Positions 1 through 17,352 of a DNA stretch of 17,352 nt are shown here, piece by piece. Under the pieces are notes generated by a model. That model was not told where the DNA came from. It worked only from the letters and a program-made list of their open reading frames with translations, and searched no databases. Origin of the DNA: Candidatus Uhrbacteria bacterium (GTDB taxonomy: Bacteria; Patescibacteriota; Patescibacteriia; SG8-24); NCBI GenBank assembly GCA_016205965.1, contig JACQSM010000077.1:1-17352 (forward strand), written 5' to 3'. The position numbers and the translations under genes are program-made. The stretch's first letter is position 1. Every line of letters starts with the position of its first letter.

Positions 1-324
1 GACCTGCTCGAGGAACTGGTCGGTGAAATCAGCGACGAATCAGATATCGACGAAAACCGCATCAAACGCATCGACAAGGTGACCATCGTGGCCCATGGCG
101 ACACCGACATCAAAGACGTCAACCGATTCTTCAACGTCAAGATCGAAGCCGAAACGAACCGCACGCTCGGCGGGGCGATCATGGAGAAACTCGGCGCTCT
201 GCCCAAACCGGGTGAAACGGTTCTGCTTGGAGAAAACCTGTCCGCCACGGTCGAGGAGATGGCCGACAGGCGCGCCACGAAGATTAAATTGGTCAAAAAA
301 ACCGACTCGTCCAAGCCGGCCTGA
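1..324 (+). CDS. C-terminal fragment of a CBS-domain transporter-associated protein (CorC/HlyC family), 5' end truncated at window start.
   Basis: The frame is open from base 1 (DLLEELVGEISDESDIDENRIKRIDK...). The translation is acidic and Glu-rich and ends ...VEEMADRRATKIKLVKK, typical of the CorC_HlyC transporter-associated domain. Stop is TGA at 322-324. Confidence 0.65.
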   Translation, partial: DLLEELVGEISDESDIDENRIKRIDKVTIVAHGDTDIKDVNRFFNVKIEAETNRTLGGAIMEKLGALPKPGETVLLGENLSATVEEMADRRATKIKLVKKTDSSKPA

Positions 325-343
325 AAACCGTCGGTTTGAGGCG

Positions 344-1432: not shown

Positions 1433-1504
1433 GGCGCTGAAATCAGACTCTCGGCGACGGATGCCGACTCATAAGGCCAGTGTAGCACGGGTCCGGACGC
1501 CGAG

Positions 1505-1536
1505 AAATAAAAAGAGAGCGAGATGTTCTCGCTCTC
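1505..1536 (-). terminator. Rho-independent terminator of the coiled-coil membrane protein gene.
   Basis: On the minus strand, directly after the TGA at 1539-1541: GAGAGCGAG-AACAT-CUCGCUCUC (9-bp perfect stem, 5-nt loop), followed by UUUUUAUUU. Confidence 0.7.
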
Positions 1537-1538
1537 GG

Positions 1539-2780: not shown

Positions 2781-2839
2781 GGGCTCCTCCTTTGTGCAGG
2801 TGAATGAACGTGCGGCCAAACCCTTGGACGCGACCGGGC

Positions 2840-2868
2840 AGTATTGCAGATTTCGCCTTAAATGTCAA
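2840..2868 (-). promoter_or_regulatory. Sigma70-like promoter: TTGACA -35 (2868-2863), 17-nt spacer, AATACT -10 (2845-2840).
   Basis: Minus-strand sequence reads TTGACAtttaaggcgaaatctgcAATACT: a perfect -35 hexamer, a 17-nt spacer and a 4/6 -10. It sits between the flotillin terminator and the coiled-coil gene, ~55 nt upstream of its start codon. Confidence 0.5.
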
Positions 2869-2893
2869 GGCTGGTTTAGAGTCTTTCCCCGAT

Positions 2894-2927
2894 GAAATAA
2901 AGAAAAAAGGAGCACATTCGTGCTCCT
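2894..2927 (-). terminator. Rho-independent terminator after the flotillin gene.
   Basis: On the minus strand after the TGA at 2941-2943: AGGAGCAC-GAAU-GUGCUCCU (8-bp perfect stem), followed by UUUUUUCUUUAUUUC. Confidence 0.7.
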
Positions 2928-2940
2928 TATGATGCGTACT

Positions 2941-4932: not shown

Positions 4933-5033
4933 GACTTGCTCCTTTTTTGGCGGCGCTGCGGCCGCACTGGTTTACCGCATTTCTTGCCTACCGCTTCCCC
5001 GCACCTGCGACTTGCACTTCACCGCACCGGCTT

Positions 5034-5720
5034 CTAGGCCTTCTCCTCCAAGTCCGGCGGGAGCCGTTCGACCACGTAGACGTCGTCGGTCTGATCGTAG
5101 TCGATCACGAGCACCGGCGCGTTCTTTTGCAATTCCTCGCCGTTGGTGCGGCAGGAAGCGTTGATGACGTTGCCCCCGCGGTCGTGCACCTGCATCAGGC
5201 CATGGGCCTTGCCGGCCGGCAGAATCAACTCGCCGGTCGACGTGATGAGATCGCGTTTGGTGAGCACGTAAGTCTCGGTTGCCGGCATGATCTTGCTCAT
5301 GAATCCGGCGAAACGGCCGGTGAGCGCGACCATGCCGACGAAGGCGATGGGCAGCGACACCAGGCCATAGAGCCATCCCGGCAGAAACTGCGACAGGAAG
5401 CTGTTGGCAATGAAGCCGATGCCGCCGAACGTGAGGGCGGCGGTGCTCAACACCAGGCTCATCGGCGCCCGGCCGATGCCGAGAATCGAGAGAGCCTTGC
5501 TGACGCTGCCGTGGCCGTCGTGGTGAATCTCGTGGCCGTCGAGTGCGTGCTGGGACGCATGATCCGACTCCGCGTCCGCGTCGGTATCGGCGTCCATGTC
5601 GGCGTCGCCGTCAGCGTCCGCGTTGGCGTCGCCGAATCCGAAAATGGACCCGGCGGCGAGCAACACTCCGCCGACAAGAGGGATGAGGAAGACGAGCGTC
5701 TGCCATGCGAAGAGGTCCAT
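5034..5720 (-). CDS. yqiJ: NfeD/YqiJ-like inner-membrane protein (DUF1449-type; C-terminal OB-fold), flotillin partner.
   Basis: 228 aa, starting at MDLFAWQ with AGGAGGGG 3 nt upstream. The ORF extends to 5774 but has no RBS there. Several TM helices. C-terminal 'TGELILPAGKAHGLMQVHDRGGNV...VLVIDYDQTDDVYVVERL' resembles the NfeD short beta-barrel. It carries an unusual acidic D/A-repeat and His-rich insert (GDANADADGDADMDADTDADAESDH...HEIHHDGHG). Confidence 0.6.
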   Translation of the reverse strand: MDLFAWQTLVFLIPLVGGVLLAAGSIFGFGDANADADGDADMDADTDADAESDHASQHALDGHEIHHDGHGSVSKALSILGIGRAPMSLVLSTAALTFGGIGFIANSFLSQFLPGWLYGLVSLPIAFVGMVALTGRFAGFMSKIMPATETYVLTKRDLITSTGELILPAGKAHGLMQVHDRGGNVINASCRTNGEELQKNAPVLVIDYDQTDDVYVVERLPPDLEEKA

Positions 5721-5848
5721 GGACCCCTCCTTTCGTTTGCCGCGTTCCGGCAGTGCCGGGGCGGCTGTTGTCAACGATCCGCTGCTCGAACCGGCGGCTC
5801 GAACAGATGATTGTGCTTACCACGTTTAAGCGGAGACGTCAAGCCTGG

Positions 5849-5877
5849 TTGCGATTTAACGGCCGAGCCGCTACCAT
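5849..5877 (+). promoter_or_regulatory. Candidate sigma70-like promoter for aguAB: TTGCGA -35 (5849-5854), 17-nt spacer, TACCAT -10 (5872-5877).
   Basis: Located in the divergent intergenic region ~35 nt upstream of the aguA ATG. Hexamer matches are moderate (4/6 each). Confidence 0.3.
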
Positions 5878-5910
5878 CCCATCGCTCGCTCATTGATAAA
5901 GGAGGCGGCG

Positions 5911-6959
<1,049 letters not shown>

Positions 6960-6963
<4 letters not shown>

Positions 6964-7820
6964 AATCGCGAATCGTGAACGCCGCCGTCATTCAATGCGC
7001 GCTGGGCGGCAGCCGGGATGACAACGCCCGCAAAGTGAAACAGCTCATCGATCAGGCGGCGCGAGCCGGAGCCAACGTCGTGGTCGCGCCGGAACTCTTC
7101 GAGACGCCGTACTTCTGCAGGACCAGGAGCCGCCGGCATTTCCAAGAGGCCACGACGCTAGATCGCAACCCGCTGATCGCCGACATGCGCCTGATCGCCC
7201 GCAGAAACAGCCTGGTGATCCCGTTCTCGTTCTTCGAGGACGGCGGTGACGGCCGCTATTTCAATACCGTCGCCATGATCGACGCCGACGGCCGCGGTCT
7301 CGGAACCTACCGCAAGAGCCACATTCCGACCGGACCCGGCTACTGGGAACGCCGCTACTTCGAACCAGGCGATACCGGCTTCAAAGTCTGGCGGACCAAG
7401 CACGGAAAGATCGGCGTCGGCATCTGCTGGGACCAGTGGTTTCCCGAATGCGCCCGCGCCATGGCCTTGGACGGAGCCGACCTGCTGTTGTATCCGTCGA
7501 CGATCGGCGCCGAGCCGCACCGACCGGATCTCGACACCCGCGACCGCTGGCGCCGCGTCATGATCGGCCATGCGGTCGCCAACGTCATCCCGATCGCCGC
7601 CGCCAACCGCACCGGCGTCGAGGACGGCATCGCCTACTACGGCTCGTCGTTCGTCTGCGATGACGCCGGCGAAATCGTCGCCGACATGGGCAGAGTGGCC
7701 CAAGGCTTCGCCATGGCCCAGATCGACATCAACGCCGTCCGGCGCAACCGCCGCGATTGGGGCCTGACCGGCTACCACCGCCGCCCCGACCTCTACGGCG
7801 CCCTCGTCAAAAAAGACTGA
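6960..7820 (+). CDS. aguB: N-carbamoylputrescine amidohydrolase (nitrilase/CN-hydrolase superfamily).
   Basis: 286 aa. CN-hydrolase catalytic triad context (VVAPELFETPYF ... YRKSHIP ... GVGICWDQWFPE). Translationally coupled to aguA through an ATGA overlap. Together the two genes convert agmatine to putrescine. Confidence 0.85.
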
Positions 7821-7827
7821 AACGCAA

Positions 7828-7858
7828 AGACCGCCCCATCCGGACGGTCTCTTTTTTT
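7828..7858 (+). terminator. Rho-independent terminator after aguB (may also serve the convergent minus-strand gene).
   Basis: AGACCG...CGGTCT stem with internal bulge (AGACCGccccatccggaCGGTCT), followed by CTTTTTTTATATTT. Begins 8 nt after the aguB TGA. Confidence 0.6.
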
Positions 7859-7882
7859 ATATTTCGCCGCCGATTTCGGACG

Positions 7883-9031
7883 TCAGTTCGAACTCCGCTC
7901 GGCCGACTTTTTAGAATAGGCGACGGCGGCCATCCAGGTCGAGATCGGCACCGCCAGAATCAGGCCGCAGCTGCCGACCATGGTCCGAATGAATTCTTCG
8001 GCGATGGGCTCGCCGTTGAGCATGACCCACAGCGGCTGCGTCTGATTGTTGTGAAACACCAGGAAAAGCGGCAACGAAGCGCCGGCATACACGAGCGCCA
8101 GCGTGTTGACCAGCGAAGCGATGTGTTCGCGGCCGACAGAAAGCCCGCGCTTGTACAGCTCGCGATGCGACAGGGTCGGATCGGCGTTGTGAATCTCCTC
8201 GACCGCGGCGACTTGGGCGGTGGTGACGTCGTCGAGCACGCCGAGGGTGCTGATGATGATGCCGGCGAGCAGCAAGCCGCGCAGGTCGATGTTCGAAATC
8301 GGGCTGTATTGCAGATAGAACGCGGCATCGCTGCCGGCGCCGAACAGCCTGGCCATCCGAACGAACGCCGTCGCCAAAACGCCGGACGCGATCAGCGACA
8401 TGACCGTGGCCGCGACGGCCACCGTCGTCCTCTTCCCCGGGCCATGCGACATGAACATCGACAGCGCGATGATGAGCATGGAACCGGCGATGGCGGTCAT
8501 CAAAGGATCATAGCCGGCGGCGATCTGCGGCATGACGACCGTCGCCAAAATCAGGATGCTCAACATCAAGCCGACGAACGAGGCGAATCCGCGGCGGCGC
8601 CCCAAGGCGACGGCCAGCAGGAAGAAAAATCCGAGCACCGCCAGCATGGCCGGCATGCGGTAGTGGTCGGCGACGTAGTACCGAACGCCGGGATCCTCGC
8701 TGACGACGGCCAGAACCAATGTCTCGCCGACCTCGGCCCGCCGGAATGCGCCGGAGTCGTCGCTGTTTTCGATGTCGACCTCCCGGCCGCCGTCATCGCC
8801 TTCGAGCAGCCGACCGCGCAGCTCTTGCGTCTGCACTTTGACGCCGCCGGCGTCGCGCTCGCTCTCGTTGACGATCTGCGTCACCTTGGCGCGGACGAAT
8901 CGCGGAGCGATCACGTCGGAGATGTTGACTTCGGCCGGCGCCGTTCCGGCTTGTGCCAGCGTCGGCGCCGCCAAAGACAGCCCGTAAAATACGAGCGCGG
9001 CCGCCAAAAATATGGATATTCGCTTGGACAT
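7883..9031 (-). CDS. Polytopic membrane protein, putatively YibE/F family.
   Basis: 382 aa, starting at MSKRISIFLAAALVFYGLSLAAP (signal/TM). A ~120-aa extracytoplasmic segment is followed by 6-7 TM helices, consistent with the YibE/F layout. The longer TTG-initiated ORF to 9103 runs through the upstream terminator hairpin and is rejected. No clear RBS at 9031. Confidence 0.4.
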   Translation of the reverse strand: MSKRISIFLAAALVFYGLSLAAPTLAQAGTAPAEVNISDVIAPRFVRAKVTQIVNESERDAGGVKVQTQELRGRLLEGDDGGREVDIENSDDSGAFRRAEVGETLVLAVVSEDPGVRYYVADHYRMPAMLAVLGFFFLLAVALGRRRGFASFVGLMLSILILATVVMPQIAAGYDPLMTAIAGSMLIIALSMFMSHGPGKRTTVAVAATVMSLIASGVLATAFVRMARLFGAGSDAAFYLQYSPISNIDLRGLLLAGIIISTLGVLDDVTTAQVAAVEEIHNADPTLSHRELYKRGLSVGREHIASLVNTLALVYAGASLPLFLVFHNNQTQPLWVMLNGEPIAEEFIRTMVGSCGLILAVPISTWMAAVAYSKKSAERSSN

Positions 9032-9071
9032 GGAATCAGTGTAGGCAATTCCAGGCGAATGCGCCACTGAC

Positions 9072-9099
9072 AAAAAAAGGAACGGAATGAATCCGTTCC
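9072..9099 (-). terminator. Rho-independent terminator after the vWA gene.
   Basis: On the minus strand after the TGA at 9126-9128: GGAACGGA-UUCAU-UCCGUUCC (8-bp perfect stem, 5-nt loop), followed by UUUUUUU. Confidence 0.7.
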
Positions 9100-9125
9100 A
9101 CAAAACGACGACCCGCCGCGTCAGG

Positions 9126-11174
9126 TCACGAGCAGGCGAACTGCTCCCGCCAGGTCACGCGCTTGAGCGAAGCGCCCTGGAACGCGGCATTCTGCTCCAG
9201 CTTGGGATACGTCCCGCGCTGGGTGCCCTTGCCGGCGTCCCAGGCGATGGCCTTGGAGCCGGTGACCTCCATGGCGAAGATGATGGCCCGCTTGAGATAG
9301 CGGACGGTAATCAAGCGCTGACGCACCTGCTTGACCCTGGTCCCGGCCTGCGCGTGGCTCATCTTGGCCGCGGCCTCGGCGTAGCTGCCGGCCTTGTACT
9401 TCATCAACCGGTACTCCACGCACCCGGCCTCGTACGTCTCCACCGGCACGCCCTGAACCTTCTCGGCCCGGCCGTGGTGGAACTCGTCCTCCTCGCCGTC
9501 ATCCTCGCCGGACGGAACCGTTGCCCCGATGCGGGCGTTGAGCGCCGTCTGCTCGGCCTTGAGCTCGGCCTCTTCCTGCATCAGCTTGACGAGTCCGAGC
9601 GTGGCCGGATTGCTCCAGTTGCCCGAGATCATCTTGATGTTGCGCAGGTTGAGGGTGTAGCACTTGCCGGGCACGTGCTTCTCGACGGCGCCGATCACCC
9701 CGGCCGACTGCAGATCCGCGAAGCTCTTGTCGGTCAGGACCGCCTCGAGCTCGGGCGTGTGCAGATTGCCGTCCAGGATGATGTTGAAGGTCCGATGCAG
9801 CTTCTTGTCTTCGGCCGGGCCGCCGTTCTCGGGCAGCACCTTGGCGTCGACCACGCACTGGACCGAGAAGTTGAAACGCGCCTTGTGGCTGCGGTAGCCG
9901 ACCACTCTCATGGTCTTGCCCAGCGGCGACGGGATGATGCGCGGGTCGCGGGTCATCTCGCCCGAGCGCTTGTAGGCGCCCTTGCCGAGGTAGACCACGT
10001 TGCCCTCGTCTTCCATCAGCGCCCGCAGGACGTTGAGCACGTTATGGTTCGGCCCCTTGGGCTTCAAGCCTTCGCCGATGTGCTTGCGGTCCCGGAACAT
10101 GCGCCGGAACTCGTCGGCCGTCTCGCGCTTCTCGCGCGGCGTGTACGACGAACCCGCCTTCTCGGCCAGGCCGTCGGCGCCGGCATTGATGAGGATCTCC
10201 ACGGCCCCGGCGCTGTCCCCGGTGATATACAGATAGGCCGCCTTGGCGATGGCGTAGCTCTTGGCCGACTCCGGCGTCAATGCCGTTGCCTTGACCGTCT
10301 GTTCCACCTTCTGGCCGTTCATCCGTCCGCGGATGGTGAACTCGTCGCATTCCTGGGTCAGCTCCACGAACAGCGTGGTCTTGCCCTGGTATGCGCCGCG
10401 GGTCCGGACGTGACCACCATCGCCGATGCTGGTCAACTCGGGCGTGGTCTTGAAGACCCTCCCCGCCGGGCCCTTGGCCGGCACGATCGCAAGGTCGAAG
10501 TTGACCGGGCGCGTGTCGCGGAAGACTTCGTCGGCGCTGACGATGGCCGGTCCGAAGTCCTCGATGTCGGAGATGTGGCGGTAGATGCCGGTGTAGCCGG
10601 CCGCCTCGGTCAGCGTCTCCATGAAATCCTGGTTGTAGTGGACGCCGTAGCCGATGACGGAAACGGAAGCGCCGGCCTCATCGAGCGCGCGAACCACGCT
10701 GAACGCCTTCTGCTCCTCCGCGTCCACGCTCCACCGGCTCGGCATGGCGCAGCCATCGGTGAACAGCACCGCATGGTGCAGCATGTCCTTGCGCGCCAGC
10801 CGCTCGACGGTCTGAAGCGTCAGCACGAGCGGCTCCGAGAAGACGGTGGTGTCCATGACGCGAACCTCCTTCTCGACGGCCTGCTTCAGCAGCTCGCGAC
10901 CGGCATGGTTGCACTGCGTCGGGCCGGCGATGAGCTTGGCCCGGTCATGGCCCGAGAAGACGATCACCGACGCGAAGTCGTTGTCGCCCAGCTCGGACAG
11001 GTACTTCTGGCTGTCGCTCTTGAGGTCGTTGATGTTCCCGCCCATCGAGACGGAACAGTCCTCGATCAGAATGGTGTGGCGGAATTCCGGCGTGGCGACG
11101 TCGCCCACATCCAGATCCACCATGACCACGTGCCGAAAACCCTTGATCAAACCTGACTGTGCGTAAATTTTCAA
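9126..11174 (-). CDS. Large von Willebrand factor A (vWA) domain protein with complete MIDAS motif; C-terminal ~450 aa of unknown fold.
   Basis: Contains RHTILIEDCSVSMGG (the DxSxS MIDAS motif), VIVFSGHD and LFTDGCA, a typical vWA beta-sheet order. Preferred start is TTG at 11174 with AAGGAG 6 nt upstream. The alternative ATG at 11237 (703 aa) lies ~9 nt from a predicted TSS and has no RBS. The gene is flanked by its own promoter-like element and terminator. Confidence 0.75.
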   Translation of the reverse strand: MKIYAQSGLIKGFRHVVMVDLDVGDVATPEFRHTILIEDCSVSMGGNINDLKSDSQKYLSELGDNDFASVIVFSGHDRAKLIAGPTQCNHAGRELLKQAVEKEVRVMDTTVFSEPLVLTLQTVERLARKDMLHHAVLFTDGCAMPSRWSVDAEEQKAFSVVRALDEAGASVSVIGYGVHYNQDFMETLTEAAGYTGIYRHISDIEDFGPAIVSADEVFRDTRPVNFDLAIVPAKGPAGRVFKTTPELTSIGDGGHVRTRGAYQGKTTLFVELTQECDEFTIRGRMNGQKVEQTVKATALTPESAKSYAIAKAAYLYITGDSAGAVEILINAGADGLAEKAGSSYTPREKRETADEFRRMFRDRKHIGEGLKPKGPNHNVLNVLRALMEDEGNVVYLGKGAYKRSGEMTRDPRIIPSPLGKTMRVVGYRSHKARFNFSVQCVVDAKVLPENGGPAEDKKLHRTFNIILDGNLHTPELEAVLTDKSFADLQSAGVIGAVEKHVPGKCYTLNLRNIKMISGNWSNPATLGLVKLMQEEAELKAEQTALNARIGATVPSGEDDGEEDEFHHGRAEKVQGVPVETYEAGCVEYRLMKYKAGSYAEAAAKMSHAQAGTRVKQVRQRLITVRYLKRAIIFAMEVTGSKAIAWDAGKGTQRGTYPKLEQNAAFQGASLKRVTWREQFACS

Positions 11175-11252
11175 AGTCCTGCTCCTTGGTGGGGCGGATT
11201 CGCCAGGAACCCGCGCGTTCGTTTGCCCCGAGGTCATCCCGAGACATGGCGG

Positions 11253-11281
11253 TTTGTAGCAAAAAAATAACGGTTCGTCAA
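11253..11281 (-). promoter_or_regulatory. Candidate promoter for the vWA gene: TTGACG -35 (11281-11276), 17-nt spacer, TACAAA -10 (11258-11253).
   Basis: Minus-strand sequence TTGACGaaccgttatttttttgcTACAAA lies between the Ubl terminator and the vWA gene. The predicted TSS is ~11246. Confidence 0.35.
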
Positions 11282-11289
11282 GGTCCTGT

Positions 11290-11317
11290 AATTAAAAAAC
11301 CGCCGCTCATGCGACGG
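11290..11317 (-). terminator. Intrinsic terminator (or attenuator) after the Ubl gene.
   Basis: Minus-strand RNA CCGUCGC-AUGA-GCGGCGG (7-bp stem including one G-U pair), followed by UUUUUUAAUU. Starts ~28 nt after the Ubl TGA. Confidence 0.5.
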
Positions 11318-11344
11318 TTCGTAGCGCGTCTGCCGCCCTCGGGA

Positions 11345-11599
11345 TCACGAGCCCTGGGGGCGCTCCTCCACCTTGACAGAGACGACATTGGCCAATGCCC
11401 TGTCGCCCGGACCGACGAAGGTGTCGAGCGTGGCCGGCTTGTCGTTGACGTACAGGTCCTTGTTCTTGGCCGAGACGCCGGCCTCCTTGAGCACCTCGCC
11501 CAGCTTGGCGCCGCTCTTGTTGACTTCCACCTGCTGGACCTTGGGCTTGCCCTGCTCACCGTTGACCTTCAACTCAACCTTGAACTTTCCCGCAGCCAT
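11345..11599 (-). CDS. Small beta-grasp ubiquitin-like protein (ThiS/MoaD-like) with non-canonical C-terminus (…VKVEERPQGS).
   Basis: 84 aa, starting at MAAGKFKVELKVNGE with AAGGAGG 5 nt upstream. The alternating beta/alpha pattern and 'LYVNDKPATLDTFVGPGDRALANVVSV' resemble the ThiS/MoaD 'VNGE...L.DGDEV.I.PPVSGG' region. It ends in Gly-Ser after an 8-residue tail rather than Gly-Gly. Lies 37 nt downstream of the E1-like gene. Confidence 0.55.
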   Translation of the reverse strand: MAAGKFKVELKVNGEQGKPKVQQVEVNKSGAKLGEVLKEAGVSAKNKDLYVNDKPATLDTFVGPGDRALANVVSVKVEERPQGS

Positions 11600-11636
11600 G
11601 GCTGCCTCCTTGTTCTGGGCCCGACATTGGGCCATT

Positions 11637-12317
11637 TCAATCCTCGACCGGGGTTTCCACTTCGTCCGCCGCCTCTTCAGCGTCGAAATCCCTGGCCAGA
11701 AACCGCTTGTGTGGCCTCATCCTGCCACCGGACCACTGAACTGTCAACTGTTTGACGACCCAGTTGGCCGCGTCGACGGCGACGAACACGATGCTGTGCT
11801 GGCCGCAATGCTGCATATTGGCCTCGCTCGACGGATACAGAAAGTGCTCGTAGTAGGCCTTATTCTGGACGTCGCATGGCTTGAGCGCGAAGATGGACAA
11901 GAACTCGACCGTGATCCGGGTGTCGATGAAGGCGTCGACCAACCCGTTGTCCTTCACCTGGTCCCAGATCAGCTTGCGCGCCTCCATGGAGTCGACGCAG
12001 GCGATGACCGTTCCCTTGAGTGGCTCGCCGGCGTACATCCGCTGGATGACCTTGAGGTTCACGCCGCTCTTGGCTCGGACCAGGCGCTCCAAGGCCGTGA
12101 CCTTGAACATGCCGATGTCGTCCTGACCGTAAGCCGAGGGCGCGATGTTGTGCGACTCAATGCCGTCTTCGTCGTAGACTGTGATGTCGTTGACGCCGAG
12201 TTTGGCCAGGATGTCCACGACCCAGCTGCCGACCGAACCGGCGCCGATGACGGTCACCGGCGAGGCGTTCAGCGGGTTGAAGATCTTGGACTGCTGCGAC
12301 AAGTTGAGCGCGTTCAT
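11637..12317 (-). CDS. E1-like enzyme of the ThiF/MoeB/HesA superfamily (ubiquitin-activating-like Rossmann fold), minimal form.
   Basis: 226 aa, starting at MNALNLSQQ with GGAGG 7 nt upstream. It has the nucleotide-binding loop VTVIGAGSVGSWVVDILAKLGV, the acidic DITVYDEDGIE segment and the D-x4-R motif (CVDSMEARK). Candidate catalytic Cys residues at KPCD and QHCG. There is no CxxC...CxxC zinc motif and a divergent HNIAPS replaces the usual NLxRQ. The ATG overlaps the stop of the upstream E2-like gene (ATGA). Confidence 0.8.
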   Translation of the reverse strand: MNALNLSQQSKIFNPLNASPVTVIGAGSVGSWVVDILAKLGVNDITVYDEDGIESHNIAPSAYGQDDIGMFKVTALERLVRAKSGVNLKVIQRMYAGEPLKGTVIACVDSMEARKLIWDQVKDNGLVDAFIDTRITVEFLSIFALKPCDVQNKAYYEHFLYPSSEANMQHCGQHSIVFVAVDAANWVVKQLTVQWSGGRMRPHKRFLARDFDAEEAADEVETPVED

Positions 12318-13801
12318 GGAAAAACCTCCGGGGCGACCGGCGCGTTGCCGGTTGGGCCGTCGTTGTTGGGTACGGCGGTTTCGCGGCTTTCCGCCGGCGT
12401 CGGGAGCGACTCCGGCGGCCAAGTCTCGATCTTCACCCGCGCGATCGCCGGCGTGTAGCCGTACTCGAGCCAGCGCAGCACGTGCAGGACGGCATCGGCG
12501 TAACGATGCTCGCCGGCCGCTTGGGTGATGACGTCGGTGACGTTGCCGAAGCAGGGCGTGCCGTCATCGTTGATGTGCGGATGCGACTCGTTCTTCGGGT
12601 GCGTCGGCGACTCGTTCCAGAGGCTGACGCGGCCATGCTGATTGATCCGGATGACGAACTCGCCGACCGGATAGCGCCGGCCGGCATGCTCGATCACGAT
12701 CTGCTTGGTGCCGACGTGCAAACCGTCCTGGACCAGCTCCACCGACGCGACTAGTGGATGGGAGATCAAACGGCGCGTGTCTTCTGGCACGCGCGACAAC
12801 TCCCTTTCAATGAAACCGGAGGTCGTGAGGGTATCGCGGAACATCTCGTACTCGCGTCTGACGCGATACATCACGGCCAGCTGCTGGCGATAGACGTCGA
12901 TTTCGGCATCACACCGCGCAATCTCCTCGGCGATATGTTTGGCTTTTGGGTCGAGCCATTTCTGCGCCATCTGCTTGAGCGCGCCGCGCCGGATGCGGGC
13001 CGGTTTCTTCTTGGCTGGCTTGGCCCGAAGACCTTCCCAGGCCAGCTTCACCATCGATTCGAACACTTGTTGTTGGCGGCCGAGGTCCTTGTCGCTGATG
13101 ACCGGAATCAAGAAGTAGACATTGGAGCCGACGATCTGCACCAACGGCCCCTTGTCGTCTTCGAGCACCGTCCCGCGTCCAGCCGACGGCCCATGACCAA
13201 TGCGGCGATCCAAGCCGTTCTTGAGGTCGATACCGAAGGCGGAGTCGATGTATCTCGTGGCACCGTCGCCCGGCGGACGGCTGTTGGTGTAGATGTGGAT
13301 CTCTCCATCCTTGTCCGGCTGCGGCGCTTTCGGCAGGCCGCCATTGGCATGATAGTAGACGTGCAGGCCGCTCAAACAGGCCAGACGTCGAAGATAGGCG
13401 AAGACCAGCGCATAGGTGGCCGCGTATTCCTCGCGTTCCTTGGCTTCGAGCTTGTCCATGTCCACGACCGTGAGCATTTCTCTCCTCAACGGATAATGGA
13501 GGTCGAGGAAACGGTGGCCCATGATACAGGACGTAGTTTGCCATTCTTCTTTGGCGTCGGAACCGGCGAGACTCTTGGCAAGCGCCACGACCAAGTCATA
13601 CTTCTGCTTCCCGGTCGAAAGCAGGCAGACGTCGATGTCGAGTCCGTCGAAGTTTACCGTCTTGAAGCGCGGTTTGAGGCCGGCCTTTGCGAAGGCCTCA
13701 TCCTTGCCTCGCACCAGCCATGCCGGAAGGCAGAAGAGGTTTCTGGAGTTCTTCGGGGCCGGAGTCTCGGATTCGGTTTCCTTCTTCTCCGCGGGATCCA
13801 T
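12314..13801 (-). CDS. 495-aa fusion protein: uncharacterised N-terminal ~330-aa region plus a C-terminal E2/UBC-like ubiquitin-conjugating domain.
   Basis: C-terminal 'YPVGEFVIRINQHGRVSLWNESPTHPKNESHPHINDDGTPCFGNVTDV...ADAVLHVLRWLEYGY' fits the UBC pattern (strand pair, HPN/HPH loop, G-x-x-C catalytic Cys, following helix). AGGAGG RBS 5 nt upstream of the ATG at 13801. The stop overlaps the E1-like start. Antisense ORF 12758..14071 is rejected. Confidence 0.65.
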   Translation of the reverse strand: MDPAEKKETESETPAPKNSRNLFCLPAWLVRGKDEAFAKAGLKPRFKTVNFDGLDIDVCLLSTGKQKYDLVVALAKSLAGSDAKEEWQTTSCIMGHRFLDLHYPLRREMLTVVDMDKLEAKEREEYAATYALVFAYLRRLACLSGLHVYYHANGGLPKAPQPDKDGEIHIYTNSRPPGDGATRYIDSAFGIDLKNGLDRRIGHGPSAGRGTVLEDDKGPLVQIVGSNVYFLIPVISDKDLGRQQQVFESMVKLAWEGLRAKPAKKKPARIRRGALKQMAQKWLDPKAKHIAEEIARCDAEIDVYRQQLAVMYRVRREYEMFRDTLTTSGFIERELSRVPEDTRRLISHPLVASVELVQDGLHVGTKQIVIEHAGRRYPVGEFVIRINQHGRVSLWNESPTHPKNESHPHINDDGTPCFGNVTDVITQAAGEHRYADAVLHVLRWLEYGYTPAIARVKIETWPPESLPTPAESRETAVPNNDGPTGNAPVAPEVFP

Positions 13802-13812
13802 TTATGCCTCCT

Positions 13813-13840
13813 AGGCACGTCGTTCGCGAACGACGTGCCT
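13813..13840. promoter_or_regulatory. 28-bp perfect palindrome AGGCACGTCGTTCG|CGAACGACGTGCCT in the 5' leader of the E2-E1-Ubl operon (operator or RNA hairpin).
   Basis: Perfect dyad with 14-bp arms and no mismatch. It lies immediately upstream of the AGGAGG Shine-Dalgarno (13807-13812) of the E2-like gene and downstream of a promoter-like element. Confidence 0.5.
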
Positions 13841-13886
13841 TGTTGTAATGTCAATGATCCGCCTGCCGTTTTTTGGCAGACCGCTC

Positions 13887-13914
13887 ACCTTAGCACTTTT
13901 TCGGCGGGCGTCAA
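13887..13914 (-). promoter_or_regulatory. Candidate promoter for the E2-E1-Ubl operon: TTGACG -35 (13914-13909), 16-nt spacer, TAAGGT -10 (13892-13887).
   Basis: Minus-strand TTGACGcccgccgaaaaagtgcTAAGGT sits between the upstream gene stop (13923) and the palindrome. The -10 match is weak. Confidence 0.3.
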
Positions 13915-13922
13915 GCGGAGGA

Positions 13923-14495
13923 CTAATCGCACGAACACGGACCCCAATGATGGATGTCGTGGTGTTTGCACGGACAGGATGCGTGACTGCGCCAGAAAGC
14001 CGGGCAGCCGGCATTCGCCTTTTCTTCGCCTAAAAACTCGCCTTCGGGCGGCAGACGAAAATCAGCAGTGAGCTTTTCCGGCAATACCTTATACAGGGTT
14101 CGGTCGTCCTCAAGCGTCAGCGGCCTTCCTTTCATATCCCGATGCGCGGCGATCGCTTTCATGAGCCGATCGAGTTCGAGCCGCAAAGATTCTTCGGACA
14201 TCACCTCGAGATCATCGTCCCATTTTTGAGAATCGGCCTGTGCATCGGCAGGAATCGGATCCGCCGCATCGGCCCGGCGATGCGTGAAAAAATCGCGACA
14301 TCGCGCCATCATCTCGTCATGCGGCGGCAGAGCCGTCGGCTTGGGCGGCGTATCCTCGAGCAGCGCCCAAAGCTTATAATCGTCCAGCCAGCAGCGATCA
14401 TCGCCCTTTTGGTCGCGATGATAACGGATGCTCTGCCGAAATTTTTTGATCGCCGCGGAGAGTTTCCCGCGAGTCATGTTTTGATCGAAGATCAT
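13923..14495 (-). CDS. Hypothetical protein with Cys/His-rich C-terminal cluster (CPAFWRSHASCPCKHHDIHHWGPCSCD), possible metal-binding (treble-clef-like) module.
   Basis: 190-aa ORF 9 nt downstream of the HAD gene stop and 120 nt upstream of the E2-like gene on the same strand. Sense-like codon usage in a lower-GC stretch. No RBS at either candidate ATG (14495 or 14477). No recognisable family. Confidence 0.4.
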   Translation of the reverse strand: MIFDQNMTRGKLSAAIKKFRQSIRYHRDQKGDDRCWLDDYKLWALLEDTPPKPTALPPHDEMMARCRDFFTHRRADAADPIPADAQADSQKWDDDLEVMSEESLRLELDRLMKAIAAHRDMKGRPLTLEDDRTLYKVLPEKLTADFRLPPEGEFLGEEKANAGCPAFWRSHASCPCKHHDIHHWGPCSCD

Positions 14496-14504
14496 TTTTT
14501 GATC

Positions 14505-15155
14505 TTACACCGTTGGCGCGCATGTCGATAATTCGCGGCCGATTTCGCGCAAACATTCACCGGCATTCCGATGGGCATCGACACGAAATGCGCGGCCGCC
14601 GAGCTCGTCGAACAGATCGCAGGTCTTCCTCGAATCATCGACCAAAAAAGCGTTCGACATCGGGACGCCGAATTCGTCGGCGAGATCGGCGAAGGTCCGA
14701 CCGCGTTGATCGGTTTTCAAACGCCTGACATCCGAACTGTTGACGATACGATCGAAAAATTCGTCCAGCCGGAGCGCCGCGATCGTGAATCTCGAGAAAC
14801 AATCCATGTTATCGGTGACCAGCGCCAGGCGCGCTGTTTTGCGGAGGTCGCGTAACAGAGGGATCGCGTCGTCATGCAGCCGCATATTTTTGCAGCTTTC
14901 CGCCAATGCATCCATCAATGATTCTGCGGGCACTGAAAGCTGCGGCGCCAATAGGTCGCAAATTTCTTCCGAGGACAGCTCCCCCAGCATCCACTGACGA
15001 ACCCGGCCGCGATCGGCGCCGAACAGCAGCGACTGAATCTTTTGGTAAATCTCCGGCCGCATAGTTTGGAAAGATTGCCAAAACCGCGAACCGGACAGCG
15101 TCCCGTCCCAATCGATGAACACCAATGGCCTCCGTTGAACATTCCCGATTCCCAT
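14505..15155 (-). CDS. HAD-superfamily hydrolase/phosphatase.
   Basis: 216 aa, starting at MGIGNVQRRPLVFIDWDGTL (HAD motif I DxDGT). Motif II is LALVTDN and motif IV is AFLVDDS. The longer start at 15206 would overlap the divergent plus-strand gene head-to-head. Confidence 0.7.
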   Translation of the reverse strand: MGIGNVQRRPLVFIDWDGTLSGSRFWQSFQTMRPEIYQKIQSLLFGADRGRVRQWMLGELSSEEICDLLAPQLSVPAESLMDALAESCKNMRLHDDAIPLLRDLRKTARLALVTDNMDCFSRFTIAALRLDEFFDRIVNSSDVRRLKTDQRGRTFADLADEFGVPMSNAFLVDDSRKTCDLFDELGGRAFRVDAHRNAGECLREIGRELSTCAPTV

Positions 15156-15170
15156 GATACCAAGTATAAG
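15142..15170 (+). promoter_or_regulatory. Candidate promoter for the small plus-strand ORF: TTCCCG -35, 17-nt spacer, TATAAG -10.
   Basis: TTCCCGattcccatgataccaagTATAAG, ending ~35 nt upstream of the ATG at 15205. The -35 match is weak. Confidence 0.25.
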
Positions 15171-15204
15171 ATAACGCGATTTCAGGCGCGAGGAGGAGTC
15201 CGTC

Positions 15205-15519
15205 ATGACGAAGAAAACAACGGCGAAGGTTTCAAAGAAGTTGCGGAAAATCTACGGCGACGCCAAAAAAGAGGGCATCTGGATCCGCGAATACAAGGGC
15301 GGTACCGGTTATCTGGCGGCCGCCGGCTACATGAAGGTCATCGAGGCCTGGGAAAAGAAGCTAAGCCGCAAGATCGACATCGAAAAACTCGAACTCGGCG
15401 ATGTGGTCGCCGTCGCCGCTCCAGGAACCGGCAAGACCAGGGAAGAGGCCTGCGAAAATGCCGTCACGAACCTAAAAAAAAGCGAGAAACCTCGCAGAGC
15501 TTCCAAGCCGCGTCGCTGA
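15205..15519 (+). CDS. Small lysine-rich basic protein (104 aa), function unknown (possible nucleic-acid-binding/regulatory protein).
   Basis: Strong AGGAGGAG RBS 6 nt upstream of the ATG. Clear third-position G/C bias. Occupies an otherwise empty intergenic segment, divergent from the HAD gene and convergent with the 349-aa gene. No family recognised. Confidence 0.5.
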   Translation: MTKKTTAKVSKKLRKIYGDAKKEGIWIREYKGGTGYLAAAGYMKVIEAWEKKLSRKIDIEKLELGDVVAVAAPGTGKTREEACENAVTNLKKSEKPRRASKPRR

Positions 15520-15584
15520 CCGCGGCTTTTTCATTCGATGGATTAAAAAACTCCGCGGGATTTCCACGGAGCCGGTGAAGGCGC

Positions 15585-16634
15585 TTACCAGATCTCGTTT
15601 GCGGCCGGACGGACGGTGACGCGAGCCCCCGGCGATGCCGACTTGATCTTCTCAACGTGCGCCGGATCGTCGCAGACCATGAACAAACTGCCGAAGCTTG
15701 ATGTGCCGAAGCCGTCGCTCATCTCGCCGCGAGTCACCTCGACCTCTTTGGTGACCGGCTTGCCGCAGCCATCCACATGGCAGGTGTGCGTGACTCGGCC
15801 GCGAATGTAGGCCCGCGTCTGTTCCATGAAGGTCGTCGGCCAAACGGTGTCCGTCGTCTCGACGAAGACGTTGTTGAGCTTGAGCCGCTGCGGCTGATCG
15901 GCCGAGGCCAAAACAACGATCCTCTTTCCGCCATCCTCGAAGTCCTTATTCCAGCCGCCACCGTAGTAAACTCCGCTCTTCAGCAGCAATGGATCGAACT
16001 TGAACTCGACGTAGTGCTTGCCGGTCGCCCGATCCCGCCAATGATAGGCATGATCGACGATCCTCGAGATCGGCACATCGCTCTCGTTGGCGTAAGCCGC
16101 GGGCGCGGTCGCCAGCCCCAGCCGTTTGGCCAGTTGCAGCGCGACCTCGGCTGCCTCCGGACTGAAGACGGAGATCGTGAGCGCATGACCGCTCAACCGC
16201 GCCGCCGACAGGAAACGATGGCGCTGGAAAGATCCGTTCGATGAAGACCATCCCGATTGCCATGATCCTTGGAGAGTCTTGGGCGCGGCTTCGGTCAGGA
16301 TCAGATGAGCCTCGCCGTGCGACTTCGTGGCCGGATCGAGGATCACGCCCGGAATACGAAACTCCTCGACCAGAGCGCCAATCATGGCTCTGATTTCATC
16401 GAAAGAAATCTGATCGGTTTTCCGGTATGGCGTGGTGAAGGTGACATCGATGCCGAACGCGCTCCTGACGGCCAACTCACCGAAACTCAAGCCGCGATTT
16501 TCAATCTCATCTTCCAGCCGGCGGCGATCGTCTCTGTCGAGCCTCATGAGATAGGAATAGACATCTTTGCCGGAGAATGAGCCCGTGGGCAGCTTCGCTT
16601 CCATCTTGAACAAACGGCCAATCGATCCGAACAT
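15585..16634 (-). CDS. Hypothetical protein (349 aa) with C-terminal Cys/His cluster (HTCHVDGCG...CDDPAH).
   Basis: Starts at MFGSIGRLF with GGAGG 5 nt upstream. Sense-like codon usage. No family recognised by eye. The cluster is a possible zinc-ribbon-like module. Confidence 0.5.
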   Translation of the reverse strand: MFGSIGRLFKMEAKLPTGSFSGKDVYSYLMRLDRDDRRRLEDEIENRGLSFGELAVRSAFGIDVTFTTPYRKTDQISFDEIRAMIGALVEEFRIPGVILDPATKSHGEAHLILTEAAPKTLQGSWQSGWSSSNGSFQRHRFLSAARLSGHALTISVFSPEAAEVALQLAKRLGLATAPAAYANESDVPISRIVDHAYHWRDRATGKHYVEFKFDPLLLKSGVYYGGGWNKDFEDGGKRIVVLASADQPQRLKLNNVFVETTDTVWPTTFMEQTRAYIRGRVTHTCHVDGCGKPVTKEVEVTRGEMSDGFGTSSFGSLFMVCDDPAHVEKIKSASPGARVTVRPAANEIW

Positions 16635-16716
16635 CTTTGCCTCCGTCGGCGCGCGTAGCACGCTTGGATTTCAAACGAGCTTGCGGCGATGAGAATATCA
16701 GGAGTCCGGCGCGCGG

Positions 16717-17244
16717 TCAACGGGCCGAAACCAAATCCACGTTCGATCCTTCGATGACCTGGCCGAGGAACGGCAGCAGCGCGCGCTGATAATTTTGAAA
16801 CTCGAGCCGATCTTCTTCGACAATCTCCTCCTTCTGCAGTTCGACTTCAAAAATCTGACCGACATCTTTCACGGTATCGAGATGAAAAACGGCATCGCCC
16901 TTCCGCCAAACCTCCCGGGTCTTTTCGACGATGGCGCGGGTACCGAGGCATTGCTCGAGAAACGGCAATAGCATATCGTCGCCGACCGAATACAGTTTAA
17001 CCAGCGCCGGCGTCACCGCGCCGCTCACGAACGACGGTCGTTCATAATAGACGAGCGTCTTCTGTGCGTTTTCGATCCGAAGTTTCAGACGCGGCTGCTG
17101 GCCGCCATTCTCCGCCGGCAGAAAGAAAAAATAATCTTTCTGATTCTTGACGATCTCCTTATGCGCGCCAATCTGCTCCAAAACTTCGCGCACCTTAGCG
17201 AAATCCTGGCAAAAATGTTTCAGCTCGAGGTTGATCTTGTTCAT
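16717..17244 (-). CDS. CYTH-domain protein (CyaB-like class IV adenylyl cyclase / triphosphatase family).
   Basis: 175 aa from MNKINLELKHF. This N-terminal ExExK-type motif is characteristic of CYTH/CyaB, and size (~175-180 aa) fits. The alternative GTG start at 17262 adds 6 residues. No RBS at the ATG. Confidence 0.6.
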   Translation of the reverse strand: MNKINLELKHFCQDFAKVREVLEQIGAHKEIVKNQKDYFFFLPAENGGQQPRLKLRIENAQKTLVYYERPSFVSGAVTPALVKLYSVGDDMLLPFLEQCLGTRAIVEKTREVWRKGDAVFHLDTVKDVGQIFEVELQKEEIVEEDRLEFQNYQRALLPFLGQVIEGSNVDLVSAR

Positions 17245-17282
17245 AGAACGAAATTGTAGCACGTGGGACGCGATGCGGCTCT

Positions 17283-17312
17283 CAAAAACAAAACCCCGCC
17301 TCGACGGCGGGG
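17283..17312 (-). terminator. Rho-independent terminator for a minus-strand gene lying beyond the window end.
   Basis: CCCCGCC-GUCGA-GGCGGGG (7-bp GC stem), followed on the minus strand by UUUUGUUUUUGAG and preceded by a U8 run. Lies upstream of the CYTH gene. Confidence 0.5.
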
Positions 17313-17352
17313 TTCCGAAAAAAAATCCGGGGCAGACTACATCTTGGGCATC

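Follow-up and report, generated by a model that had tools for sequence, protein, structure and literature searches.

A long E2-like protein, encoded with a ThiF-type E1 and a ubiquitin-like protein, points to a protein-tagging pathway in bacteria and phages

The window, the whole 17,352-nucleotide stretch analyzed here (Candidatus Uhrbacteria bacterium, assembly GCA_016205965.1, contig JACQSM010000077.1, positions 1-17,352), encodes a 495-residue E2-like protein that is probably the conjugating enzyme of a self-contained three-gene cassette for tagging by a ubiquitin-like protein (Ubl), with the genes in the order E2-E1-Ubl. We base this reading on the fold of its C-terminal region, a small set of invariant residues, the linkage of the three genes, and the nature of the two partner proteins. 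The strongest support is the coupling of the long gene to one for a ThiF-type E1, followed by a Ubl gene, which was absent from the preliminary description of this DNA. The cassette suggests a pathway that tags proteins in bacteria and phages and of which we found no description.

Architecture and family of the long E2-like protein

The open reading frame named in the preliminary description is a real gene on the minus strand (Table 1), and an AGGAGG Shine-Dalgarno sequence stands 6 nt 5' of its ATG. In an AF2 model of the product (mean pLDDT 81), two folded subdomains, N1 and N2, precede a basic linker, a long helix, and the C-terminal domain. The domain-to-domain arrangement is uncertain in this model (pTM 0.54), which weighs against the reading proposed above. 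Across 146 homologues, N1 averages 0.90 bits per column with 18% gaps, and N2 1.45 bits per column with 1% gaps; the N2 loops carry near-invariant residues (P160, P176-P-G178, G208-R-G210, D215, Q222, and Y229). The sequence HVYYHANGGLP, singled out earlier, occupies residues 147-157, and the basic linker that had also been noted reads AKKKPARIRRG and leads into the predicted helix 274-325. This helix is probably a coiled coil; an HMM profile of the whole protein retrieved only coiled coils from the PDB sequences, e.g., vimentin, keratin, and ApoA-I.

The N-terminal region had been described as devoid of recognizable motifs, and this assessment stands: it has zero Pfam matches, and comparison with solved structures in the PDB gave no convincing match. 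Three roles had been suggested for it. A second, degenerate UBC/RWD/UEV-like domain was rejected, as hhalign returned 0.4% against the E2 profile and 1.3% against the protein's own C-terminal domain. An exchangeable effector domain is not supported, given the presence of the region, alignable throughout, in the whole family, including its phage member; many distant relatives match the profile only from about position 130. The best reading of the region is the third suggestion, that of a putative E3-like recognition or recruitment domain.

The C-terminal region is a real E2 fold. Its layout (helix 330-347, strands 351-399, the active-site loop, and helices 419-430 and 434-447) provides the N-terminal helix, antiparallel four-stranded meander, long loop, and crossover helix of the UBC fold. 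When a profile of this domain built from 145 sequences was compared by hhalign with six canonical E2s, it matched them over 85 columns with 87.4% probability (P 3.7e-6), and reversed and shuffled controls did not exceed 1.2%. The match takes in helix 1, the RYxxGxF/PYxGGxF strand, HPH/HPN, G414/G82, and C417/C85; the UBE2D2 reference sequence was verified to be identical to PDB 1ur6_A. The UBC-like module of the preliminary description is thereby confirmed, as is its reading of the loop as HPHINDDGTPC (residues 407-417). The motif H-x-H...C-[FYWLM]-G is present in 153 of the 155 homologues retrieved. In an alignment of 146 sequences with a mean column identity of only 16%, H407, H409, C417, and G419 are invariant, and P408 and H401 are conserved at 99% and 93%, respectively. 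C417, present in 146/146 sequences, occupies the position of the E2 cysteine within the loop that joins strand 4 to helix 2, and is the predicted catalytic residue.

The domain nonetheless departs from canonical E2s. The H-P and the spacing of the HPN motif are kept, but its Asn is replaced by an invariant His (HPH). In canonical E2s, moreover, the Cys is soon followed by a Trp, and helices 3 and 4 lie at the C terminus (bioRxiv 10.1101/2022.03.31.486616). The long protein has no Trp at +8, its conserved Trp being W444, and only the two helices 419-430 and 434-447 follow Cys417, fewer than in canonical E2s. These three departures weigh against a conjugating enzyme. A profile HMM of the domain recovered no E2 from the PDB sequences. 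Neither UQ_con (PF00179) nor the Prok-E2 models matched the window protein at E<=1, and neither was among the 25 Pfam families listed at that threshold for 90 diverse members, none of which was matched by more than 2 of the 90.

The family proved to be large. A word-indexed homologue search with a 90-sequence profile found only close relatives, whereas an exhaustive HMM search revealed the family size: over 1400 distant homologues in addition to 14 close ones, with 236 cluster representatives at E<=1e-30 and some 1,500 members at E<=1e-10. Related loci were located with a 7-sequence alignment. Members occur in many reduced Patescibacteria genomes, in other uncultured bacteria, and in phages, and they are numerous in metagenomes. 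The cassette has a patchy distribution, and one genome contains two paralogous copies. The window protein has zero matches in Pfam, NCBIfam, PADLOC, and PHROGs, and a Pfam scan of the 90 diverse members turned up nothing beyond scattered coiled-coil noise. No match was found by tblastn in annotated phage and plasmid collections, and no description of the family in the literature. The family's absence from these four databases explains why its members are currently labelled 'hypothetical'.

Table 1. Positions in the window of the long E2-like gene, the parts of its product, and the two neighboring genes
Feature	Position	Strand	Basis
Long E2-like gene, 495-aa product	12314..13801 (stop codon included; ATG at 13801, TGA at 12314-12316)	-	ORF list and translation
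N1 subdomain, residues 18-145, alpha/beta, most variable folded part	13367..13750	-	pLDDT ~84-94
N2 subdomain, residues 146-262, beta-rich with one helix	13016..13366	-	Conservation
Basic disordered linker (263-273) and ~52-residue helix (274-325)	12815..13015	-	DSSP on model (H274-325)
UBC/E2-fold domain, residues 330-466	12404..12814	-	Model and profile
Active-site loop HPHINDDGTPC, H407-C417	12551..12583	-	Translation check; aligns with UBE2D2 H75-P-N77...C85
ThiF-type E1-like adenylating enzyme, 226 aa	11637..12317	-	Pfam ThiF 1.4e-16, above curated cut-off
Ubiquitin-like protein, 84 aa	11345..11599	-	Sequence; start site with AAGGAGG Shine-Dalgarno
Ubl tail codons, E-R-P-Q-G-S-COOH	11348..11365	-	Tail conservation

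The E1-like and Ubl partners and their genomic setting

The ATG of the E1 gene overlaps the stop codon of the long gene (ATGA, read directly), and the same 4-nt overlap occurs at two other loci, L004 and L005. The E1 is a single adenylation domain. Its nucleotide-binding part is matched by the PADLOC E1-E2 models and by NCBIfam models of the ThiF type, and its relatives in the PDB include UBA5, ThiF, MccB, PaaA, Cap2, and BubCD. Invariant motifs include GAGSVGS (GxGxxG), DxD, K, and VDSMEAR with Asp109 (VDxMxxR), and the canonical NxxRQ motif is missing its Arg, which weighs against the proposed cassette function. The enzyme has a single invariant Cys, C171 (14 loci), about 62 residues past the Mg-binding Asp; the PDB alignments stop before it. 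We take this spacing to resemble that in UBA5, MoeB, and ThiF.

The Ubl of the window is identical to the database entry HY633_03750 (Candidatus Uhrbacteria). Among 40 members of its family, sub-threshold to moderate Pfam matches were obtained with SAMP2 (24/40; best 2.4e-6), Ub-Mut7C (14/40), and ThiS (12/40), and the beta-grasp family DUF348 is matched as well. The model has a pLDDT of only 63.5, and its beta-beta-alpha-beta-beta-beta order fits a beta-grasp. Residues E79 to S84 are each conserved at 90% or more in a 40-sequence alignment. The C terminus reads ERPQGS in 69 of 81 homologues and ends in GS in 79, the other two ending in Ala-Gly. Instead of an exposed Gly-Gly or Gly, the Ubl thus ends in Gly-Ser; one distant paralogue does end in Gly-Gly. 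This end, together with the lack of a protease in the bacterial cassette, weighs against the proposed function.

The order long E2-like gene, ThiF-type E1 (212-229 aa), Ubl (79-94 aa) was found in all 12 independent loci, which belong to different organisms. As for a protease, no JAB was detected among the scanned genes flanking the cassette or among neighbors at other loci with precomputed Pfam matches, and no DUF6527 or peptidase gene is linked to the long gene. Neither a CD-NTase nor a JAB peptidase was matched among the scanned open reading frames of the window. The cassette is surrounded by housekeeping genes (for ribosomal proteins, IF3, LexA, SAM synthetase, and cell-wall functions) and does not lie in defense islands, and this setting also weighs against the proposed reading. 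At one paralogous locus, the cassette stands alongside genes for an AAA+ ATPase and a metalloprotease-like protein, a pairing suggestive of some connection with unfolding or degradation.

Other genes near the cassette in the window were considered as parts of the system. The 703-aa VWA protein encoded downstream was rejected: it is absent from all other loci, including that of the closest relative, and no E1 or E2 lies close to its counterparts in phages. Membership is not supported for the 190-aa Cys/His-rich protein encoded upstream, the HAD hydrolase, the 358-aa protein, or the CYTH protein, which are either absent elsewhere or syntenic in the nearest relative only.

A viral contig, L017, encodes a full-length homologue of the long protein (hmmsearch 8.9e-30; IHPHINREGTPCFGN), followed by a Prok-JAB peptidase, a ThiF protein, and a tandem ThiS-like Ubl. 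Each repeat of this Ubl ends in ...KGG, with one Cys after the last repeat. The gene group is a classical E2/DUB/E1/poly-Ubl set. Relatives were also found among predicted viral protein structures.

A proposed conjugation pathway and competing readings

Every chemical step of the pathway set out below is our inference from these observations, and so are the parts assigned to N1 and N2 and whatever is said of target and purpose. The 226-aa E1, which like ThiF, MoeB, and UBA5 is probably homodimeric, would bind the 84-aa Ubl and adenylate its C-terminal carboxylate, that of Ser84 in ...ERPQGS or of Gly in the rarer variants. C171 of the E1 may receive the Ubl as a thioester, and the Ubl would then move to Cys417 of the UBC domain, where the invariant His409, at the position of the canonical HPN Asn, would aid catalysis. 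From there, a target nucleophile would receive the Ubl with no separate E3 involved. Because the E1 lacks a ubiquitin-fold domain through which an E2 could be recruited, docking of the E1, the Ubl tail, or both probably falls to N2 and the long helix; the protein may also dimerize through the helix, and the more variable N1 would probably select the target. The long protein is possibly an E2/E3 hybrid.

With respect to purpose, it is conceivable, though less likely than not, that the cassette represents a widespread tagging pathway shared by Patescibacteria, further uncultured bacteria, and certain phages, in which the Ubl would be activated at a C-terminal Ser instead of Gly, no peptidase would take part in processing or deconjugation, and attachment would be carried out by one long E2/E3 hybrid; the product could be a housekeeping or regulatory tag. 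The same mechanism might instead serve an antiviral or counter-defense purpose, as in Bil, Bub, and CBASS type II, with the N-terminal domain recognizing a phage or host protein, and we regard this as conceivable but doubtful. All bacterial E1/E2 systems studied by experiment act against phage (PMC11601596, PMC10557695), and a defense role would suit the variable N1, the patchy distribution, the two paralogous cassettes in one genome, and the viral relatives, known both from a contig and from predicted protein structures. On the other hand, no PADLOC model matches the E2 or the Ubl, the cassette is kept in many reduced Patescibacteria genomes, and the housekeeping neighbors listed above are not those of a defense island.

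Other readings change the mechanism itself. It is unlikely, in our judgment, that the C-terminal domain is an inert scaffold of the UBC/RWD/UEV kind, with H401, H407, H409, and C417 binding a structural metal and the long protein acting as an adaptor that binds the Ubl or the E1 and does not carry the Ubl as a thioester; any conjugation would then start from the E1 itself, as it does in the SAMP and Urm1 systems, which work without an E2. That these four residues could form a metal site does weigh against the conjugating enzyme. However, H401 is not invariant, and the catalytic loop aligns one to one with that of UBE2D2, whose H75, N77, and C85 are at identical spacing. Moreover, RWD and UEV domains have no cysteine, yet the Cys of the long protein is found in every homologue aligned.

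Still less probable is a ThiS/MoaD-type pathway for sulfur transfer, in which the E1 would adenylate the small protein for conversion to a thiocarboxylate and the long protein, instead of tagging proteins, would use or deliver the sulfur via Cys417 to modify a cofactor, tRNA, or metabolite. One source does label a homologue of the small protein 'sulfur carrier protein ThiS', Pfam matches to ThiS and SAMP2 occur among members of its family, and the E1 is minimal, of ThiF/MoeB size; the lack of a deconjugating peptidase and the housekeeping neighborhoods in small genomes would fit as well. Nevertheless, none of the 12 loci has a linked gene for a cysteine desulfurase, a rhodanese, or an enzyme of sulfur insertion, no part in such insertion is known for the UBC fold, and the phage version combines a JAB peptidase with a tandem poly-Ubl, an arrangement typical of conjugation systems. 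To our knowledge, sulfur carriers end in Gly-Gly.

Finally, we consider it very improbable that the small protein is a precursor whose ERPQGS hexapeptide is modified by the ThiF-like enzyme in the manner of MccB or PaaA, with the long protein as a tailoring or export-related enzyme: MccB is the best single-sequence PDB match of the E1 (E 1.7e-5), PaaA was also found, the terminal residue is not Gly, and extreme conservation is confined to the last six residues, as in a core peptide, but a conserved tail is a hallmark of Ubls too (e.g., LRLRGG in ubiquitin), the remainder of the small protein has the beta-grasp order of secondary structure and matches Ubl families, the partner has an E2 fold, and none of the linked genes encodes an exporter, an immunity protein, or a peptidase.

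Relation to described systems and significance

Compared with canonical E2s such as UBE2D2 and UBE2S (Pfam UQ_con), the long protein has some 330 additional N-terminal residues. In UBE2O and BIRC6, the UBC domain is part of a much larger protein in which other domains choose the substrate, which removes the need for a separate E3. By analogy, we propose the same hybrid logic for the long protein, although the eukaryotic proteins are far larger and there is no sequence kinship or detectable fold kinship with them outside the UBC domain. One of the best PDB relatives of the cassette E1 is UBA5, a minimal E1 that forms homodimers and carries its catalytic Cys in the crossover loop; this kinship does not imply orthology with the UBA5-UFC1-UFM1 system. 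UFM1 is made with residues past its Gly (Gly-Ser-Cys) and is processed by dedicated proteases, and UFC1 is a small E2 with a non-HPN loop.

Among bacterial systems, Bil comprises the BilA Ubl, the BilB E2, the BilC JAB, and the BilD E1 (PMC10557695). Like the cassette, it is an operon with Ubl, E2, and E1 as separate genes, and its E2, with a catalytic Cys and a nearby His, has likewise been proposed to pick targets without an E3. However, BilB stands alone, without a large N-terminal extension, and in its CEHH motif the His follows the Cys. BilD has IAD, AAD, and CYS domains, whereas the cassette E1 is a single adenylation domain. Bil also relies on its JAB peptidase, which has no counterpart in the cassette, to expose the Gly, and one extra residue past this Gly blocks activation (PMC10557695).

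Bub (6E/DUF6527; PMC11601596) resembles the cassette as a diverged bacterial E1/E2/Ubl operon with a minimal homodimeric E1. Its E2 uses Ser and forms oxyester intermediates, whereas the long protein has an invariant Cys, and Bub operons include fusions of the E1 or E2 as well as a DUF6527 protein and a Ser-His peptidase, in contrast to the separate genes of the cassette, which has neither protein. In CBASS type II, the E1 part of Cap2 is related to the cassette E1, as judged from the matches to Cap2 chains and PADLOC E1-E2 models. A Cap2-like catalytic Cys at or near the crossover loop, without an inserted helical domain, is suggested for the cassette E1 by spacing alone. Cap2 is an E2-E1 fusion, encoded beside a CD-NTase and Cap3, that conjugates the CD-NTase instead of a Ubl, and its E2 domain has no HPN-type motif and resembles ATG3 and ATG10; in the cassette, the two enzymes are encoded separately and there is no CD-NTase.

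The prokaryotic E2-like families defined in 2006 by Iyer, Burroughs, and Aravind (types 6a-6e; Prok-E2_A to E; PMC1779556), in the portion of that account considered here, lie in operons of E1-like, E2-like, and Ubl genes in which JAB is optional; the phage variant, with its JAB and tandem Ubl, resembles the 'polyUbl' theme of the same account. In one of these families, a conserved Cys replaces the classical His; in another, that His is missing and a conserved His comes after the Cys; a third lacks the Cys. That portion reports no large N-terminal extension like the one seen here, and retention of the canonical HPx-Cys loop is not reported in the descriptions of Bil, Bub, Cap2, and 2006-type E2-like proteins considered here.

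Ubl conjugation in bacteria was shown by experiment only recently, in CBASS Cap2, Bil, and Bub, each of which gave new chemistry and bears on the origin of eukaryotic ubiquitination. Because the genes of the present cassette are small, adjacent, and translationally coupled, the proposal can be tested directly by co-expression in E. coli. Protein regulation in the reduced genomes of Patescibacteria is almost wholly undescribed. The cassette found there would be a fourth, structurally distinct type of bacterial Ubl conjugation system, one that joins an H-P-x...Cys loop and a large uncatalogued domain to a minimal E1 and an ERPQGS Ubl that comes without a peptidase.

The long E2-like protein and its family

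The preliminary description had placed the long E2-like protein at 12314-13801; this is one real ORF on the minus strand of a metagenome-assembled genome of Candidatus Uhrbacteria (Patescibacteria), with an AGGAGG ribosome-binding site 6 nt 5' of its ATG, and every string quoted from it was recovered in the translation.

Features of the window and of related loci
Feature	Location	Strand	Description
Long E2-like gene	12314-13801	-	ATG at 13801, TGA 12314-12316; 495 aa; single ORF
N1	residues 18-145		alpha/beta, variable; 0.90 bits per column
N2	residues 146-262		beta-rich, better conserved than N1; 1.45 bits per column
HVYYHANGGLP	residues 147-157
Linker and helix	after N2		basic, disordered (AKKKPARIRRG); then long predicted helix (~52 residues)
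HPHINDDGTPC	residues 407-417 (12551-12583)	-	read from translation
E1 gene	11637-12317	-	adjoins E2-like gene; 226-aa ThiF-type protein; Pfam ThiF 1.4e-16
Ubl gene	11345-11599	-	after E1; 84 aa; own strong Shine-Dalgarno site
VWA-domain protein	9126-11237	-	703 aa; immediately 3' of Ubl gene
Palindrome	13813-13840		28 nt, perfect; AGGCACGTCGTTCG/CGAACGACGTGCCT
190-aa protein	13923-14495	-	just upstream of E2-like gene; Cys/His-rich C-terminus CPAFWRSHASCPCKHHDIHHWGPCSCD
CYTH-domain protein (181 aa) and adjacent 358-aa protein	15585-17262; L007 2344-4003	-; 
Ordinary chromosome	2941-7820
Paralogous cassettes, GCA_964551765.1	L012 5248-12465; L014 8001-10787
TPR-repeat protein	L004 9912-12128; L005 5335-7461		~710-740 aa; after Ubl
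Viral cassette	L017 6900-10709		five adjacent genes
L017 E2-like homologue			584 aa, full-length; IHPHINREGTPCFGN plus extra C-terminal Cys-rich (zinc-ribbon-like) tail
L017 Prok-JAB peptidase			HSHAGMSCFWSATD
L017 ThiF			221 aa
L017 CxxC...CxxC protein			54 aa; between E1 and tandem Ubl
L017 tandem ThiS-like Ubl			every repeat ends VPAFKGG; single Cys after last

A UBC-like C-terminal module with HPHINDDGTPC as its catalytic loop had been proposed, and both claims are supported by structure prediction and profile comparison. In an AlphaFold2 model built from 14 homologues (mean pLDDT 81; 82-92 across most of the C-terminal domain; 67 at the active-site loop), this domain comprises a helix at residues 330-347, five strands within 351-399, a long loop holding H401, H407, P408, H409 and C417, and two further helices (419-430 and 434-447). 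When its profile (145 homologues) was aligned by hhalign with a profile of six canonical E2s, among them UBE2D2 with a sequence confirmed identical to PDB 1ur6_A, the two matched with 87.4% probability (P 3.7e-6) over 85 columns; one reversed and 11 column-shuffled control profiles all scored at or below 1.2%. Helix 1 is matched in this alignment, as are the strand motifs RYxxGxF and PYxGGxF, HPHI and HPNI, G414 and G82, and C417 and the catalytic cysteine of UBE2D2, C85. The relationship is remote, since an ordinary HMM of the domain retrieved no E2s from PDB sequences; Foldseek with the whole model gave no match in the PDB (best E 0.12). The predicted fold and the profile alignment, two independent methods, are nevertheless consistent, and with moderate fold-match scores they place the protein in the UBC-fold superfamily. 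Strict canonical UQ_con membership does not apply: there is no Pfam match, the motif reads HPH in place of HPN, and the set of C-terminal helices is reduced.

Word-indexed searching found just 14 relatives. An HMM run exhaustively against 1.84 billion cluster representatives retrieved 3,049 at E<=1e-3 (the weakest-scoring may include coiled-coil noise), of which 1,473 reached E<=1e-10 and 236 reached E<=1e-30. The pattern H-x-H...C-[FYWLM]-G is present in 153 of 155 retrieved homologues; one exception reads C-H-G there, and in the second the final ~70 residues diverge in a frameshift-like manner. In a 146-sequence alignment (mean column identity 16%), H407, H409, G419 and C417, the putative catalytic cysteine whose conservation was in question, are invariant, and P408, H401, W395, T365, G380, W444, L445, Y449, W461 and P462 are at least 90% conserved.

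As previously noted, the N-terminal part carries no recognisable motifs. A Pfam scan of 90 diverse family members gave no meaningful match. The idea that the N-terminal part is swapped like an effector is not supported, as the region is found in the whole family. The conserved loops of N2 contain P160, PPG176-178, GRG208-210, D215, Q222 and Y229, and the long helix has coiled coils as its sole PDB sequence matches. The window protein had zero matches in NCBIfam, PADLOC and PHROGs, and the family is missing from four curated family libraries; full-text literature searching found no paper that describes it.

The E1, the Ubl and the cassette across loci

The TGA of the E2-like gene overlaps the ATG of the E1 gene (ATGA), and such overlaps recur among loci. 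Solved relatives of this E1 are TcdA-like enzymes, UBA5, ThiF, MccB, Cap2, UBA3, Uba4, ATG7 and BubCD. Across 14 loci, including a phage, the E1 keeps GxGxxG, DxD, HN, K and VDxMxxR, and its sole invariant cysteine is C171, ~62 residues C-terminal of the Mg-binding Asp. We take this spacing, from known structures and beyond the reach of alignments, to resemble that of the cysteines in the crossover loops of UBA5, MoeB and ThiF. The usual NxxRQ motif lacks its Arg.

The Ubl, identical to database entry HY633_03750, belongs to a group with weak beta-grasp Pfam matches (SAMP2 in 24/40 members, best 2.4e-6; DUF348 in 20/40; Ub-Mut7C in 14/40; ThiS in 12/40), and its model, of modest confidence (pLDDT 63.5), shows a free tail and elements in the beta-grasp order, beta-beta-alpha-beta-beta-beta. 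The main puzzle is its Gly-Ser end, found in 79 of 81 relatives (exactly ERPQGS in 69). In Bil, one residue beyond Gly prevents activation until JAB takes it off (PMC10557695). No peptidase is linked to the cassette in the 12 loci with readable flanks, and the last residue is nearly always Ser, rarely Gly, which argues that the final residue itself is the activated one.

The order E2-like gene, ThiF, small protein holds in all 12 of these independent loci (the window, L001, L004, L005, L008-L011, L018-L020 and L022), and the surrounding genes, mostly housekeeping, change from locus to locus. The genome GCA_964551765.1 carries two paralogous cassettes. In one, a family member is paired with a ThiF without its nucleotide-binding half and a Ubl ending ...RPQGG; an 877-aa AAA+ ATPase lies upstream, and a 500-aa metalloprotease-like protein with a HEMAH motif lies downstream. 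In the second cassette, the Ubl ends in TERVQGS and is extended N-terminally by a Pro-rich stretch, and there is a further small protein ending TERRDP.

H401, H407, H409 and C417 could also form a metal site. The reading of the family as the E2 of Ubl conjugation gains strong, independent backing from the gene content of a 59-kb viral contig (IMGVR_UViG_3300020814_000010, L017), which encodes a textbook E2/DUB/E1/poly-Ubl combination. Foldseek against predicted viral structures matched five phage proteins, all uncharacterised and 420-1,146 aa long (E<1e-3).

Taxonomic labels of the metagenome-assembled loci should be treated with caution. L001 and L008 are near-identical, with the same flanking Exo_endo_phos genes and almost equal Ubl sequences; one carries the label Candidatus Parcubacteria, its counterpart that of Candidatus Binatia. 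The G+C content of family loci runs from ~45% to 68%.

Neighbouring genes and elements

The E2-like gene has the palindrome directly 5' of its Shine-Dalgarno site and ATG, where chance would predict none. This element is missing at the matching position of the closest relative, L022, where a shared TTGACA-containing stretch abuts the ribosome-binding site, and it could act as an operator, as a translation-masking RNA hairpin or as the upstream gene's terminator.

The VWA protein matches phrog_2426 (2.4e-24) and, along 64-65% of its length, shows ~24% identity to VWA proteins from jumbo phages of Rhizobium. No other cassette locus has this protein, which rules it out as a core member. The VWA domain of Rpn10 binds ubiquitin, and by analogy a local functional link to the cassette might exist. 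In L004 and L005, two related loci, its slot is taken by the TPR-repeat protein, and an unannotated ~250-260-aa protein lies 5' of the E2-like gene; both are possible lineage-specific accessory partners.

Upstream, the 190-aa protein has zero matches in any library and no relative among the other loci; in the nearest relative, an IS1595 transposase and a 116-aa ORF occupy the place of its gene and of a HAD hydrolase. The CYTH protein and the 358-aa protein, the latter without family matches, are conserved together there (84% and 75% identity), likewise upstream of the cassette. The chromosomal stretch encodes a 663-aa SPFH/Band-7 protein with a YqiJ-like membrane protein, and a polyamine pathway of agmatine deiminase (PAD_porph, 4.9e-111) and an N-carbamoylputrescine amidase-like CN hydrolase, a pair syntenic with the closest relative (L021).

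Relation to known systems and proposed mechanism

The cassette would work like an E1-E2-Ubl cascade yet belongs to none of the described bacterial types compared. It falls outside Bil, with its CEHH E2, two-domain E1 with a CYS domain, and JAB (PMC10557695); outside Bub, with its Ser E2, DUF6527, peptidase and gene fusions (PMC11601596); and outside CBASS Cap2, an E2-E1 fusion without an HPN-type motif that conjugates CD-NTase (bioRxiv 10.1101/2022.03.31.486616). The portions compared of the 2006 work by Iyer, Burroughs and Aravind (PMC1779556) describe one E2-like family with Cys where the classical His sits, a second in which that His is missing and a conserved His follows the Cys, and a third without the Cys. 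The components, E1, E2 and Ubl, are familiar. New are the E2 architecture, the Ser-ended Ubl tail, the absence of a peptidase, and the occurrence mainly in Patescibacteria and other metagenome-assembled uncultured bacteria, plus some phages.

Beyond the anatomy of the parts, we infer the following mechanism. The E1 would adenylate the Ubl C-terminus and may carry the Ubl on C171; the Ubl would pass onto C417 of the UBC domain, where the invariant H409, replacing the canonical Asn, would aid catalysis, and would then be handed to a target. Since this E1 lacks a ubiquitin-fold domain through which an E2 could be recruited, N2, with its conserved loops, and the long helix are good candidates for a dock for either the dimeric E1 or the tail of the Ubl, and the variable N1 is a candidate target-recognition module. 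With target recognition by N1, the protein would be an E2/E3 hybrid comparable to UBE2O and BIRC6.
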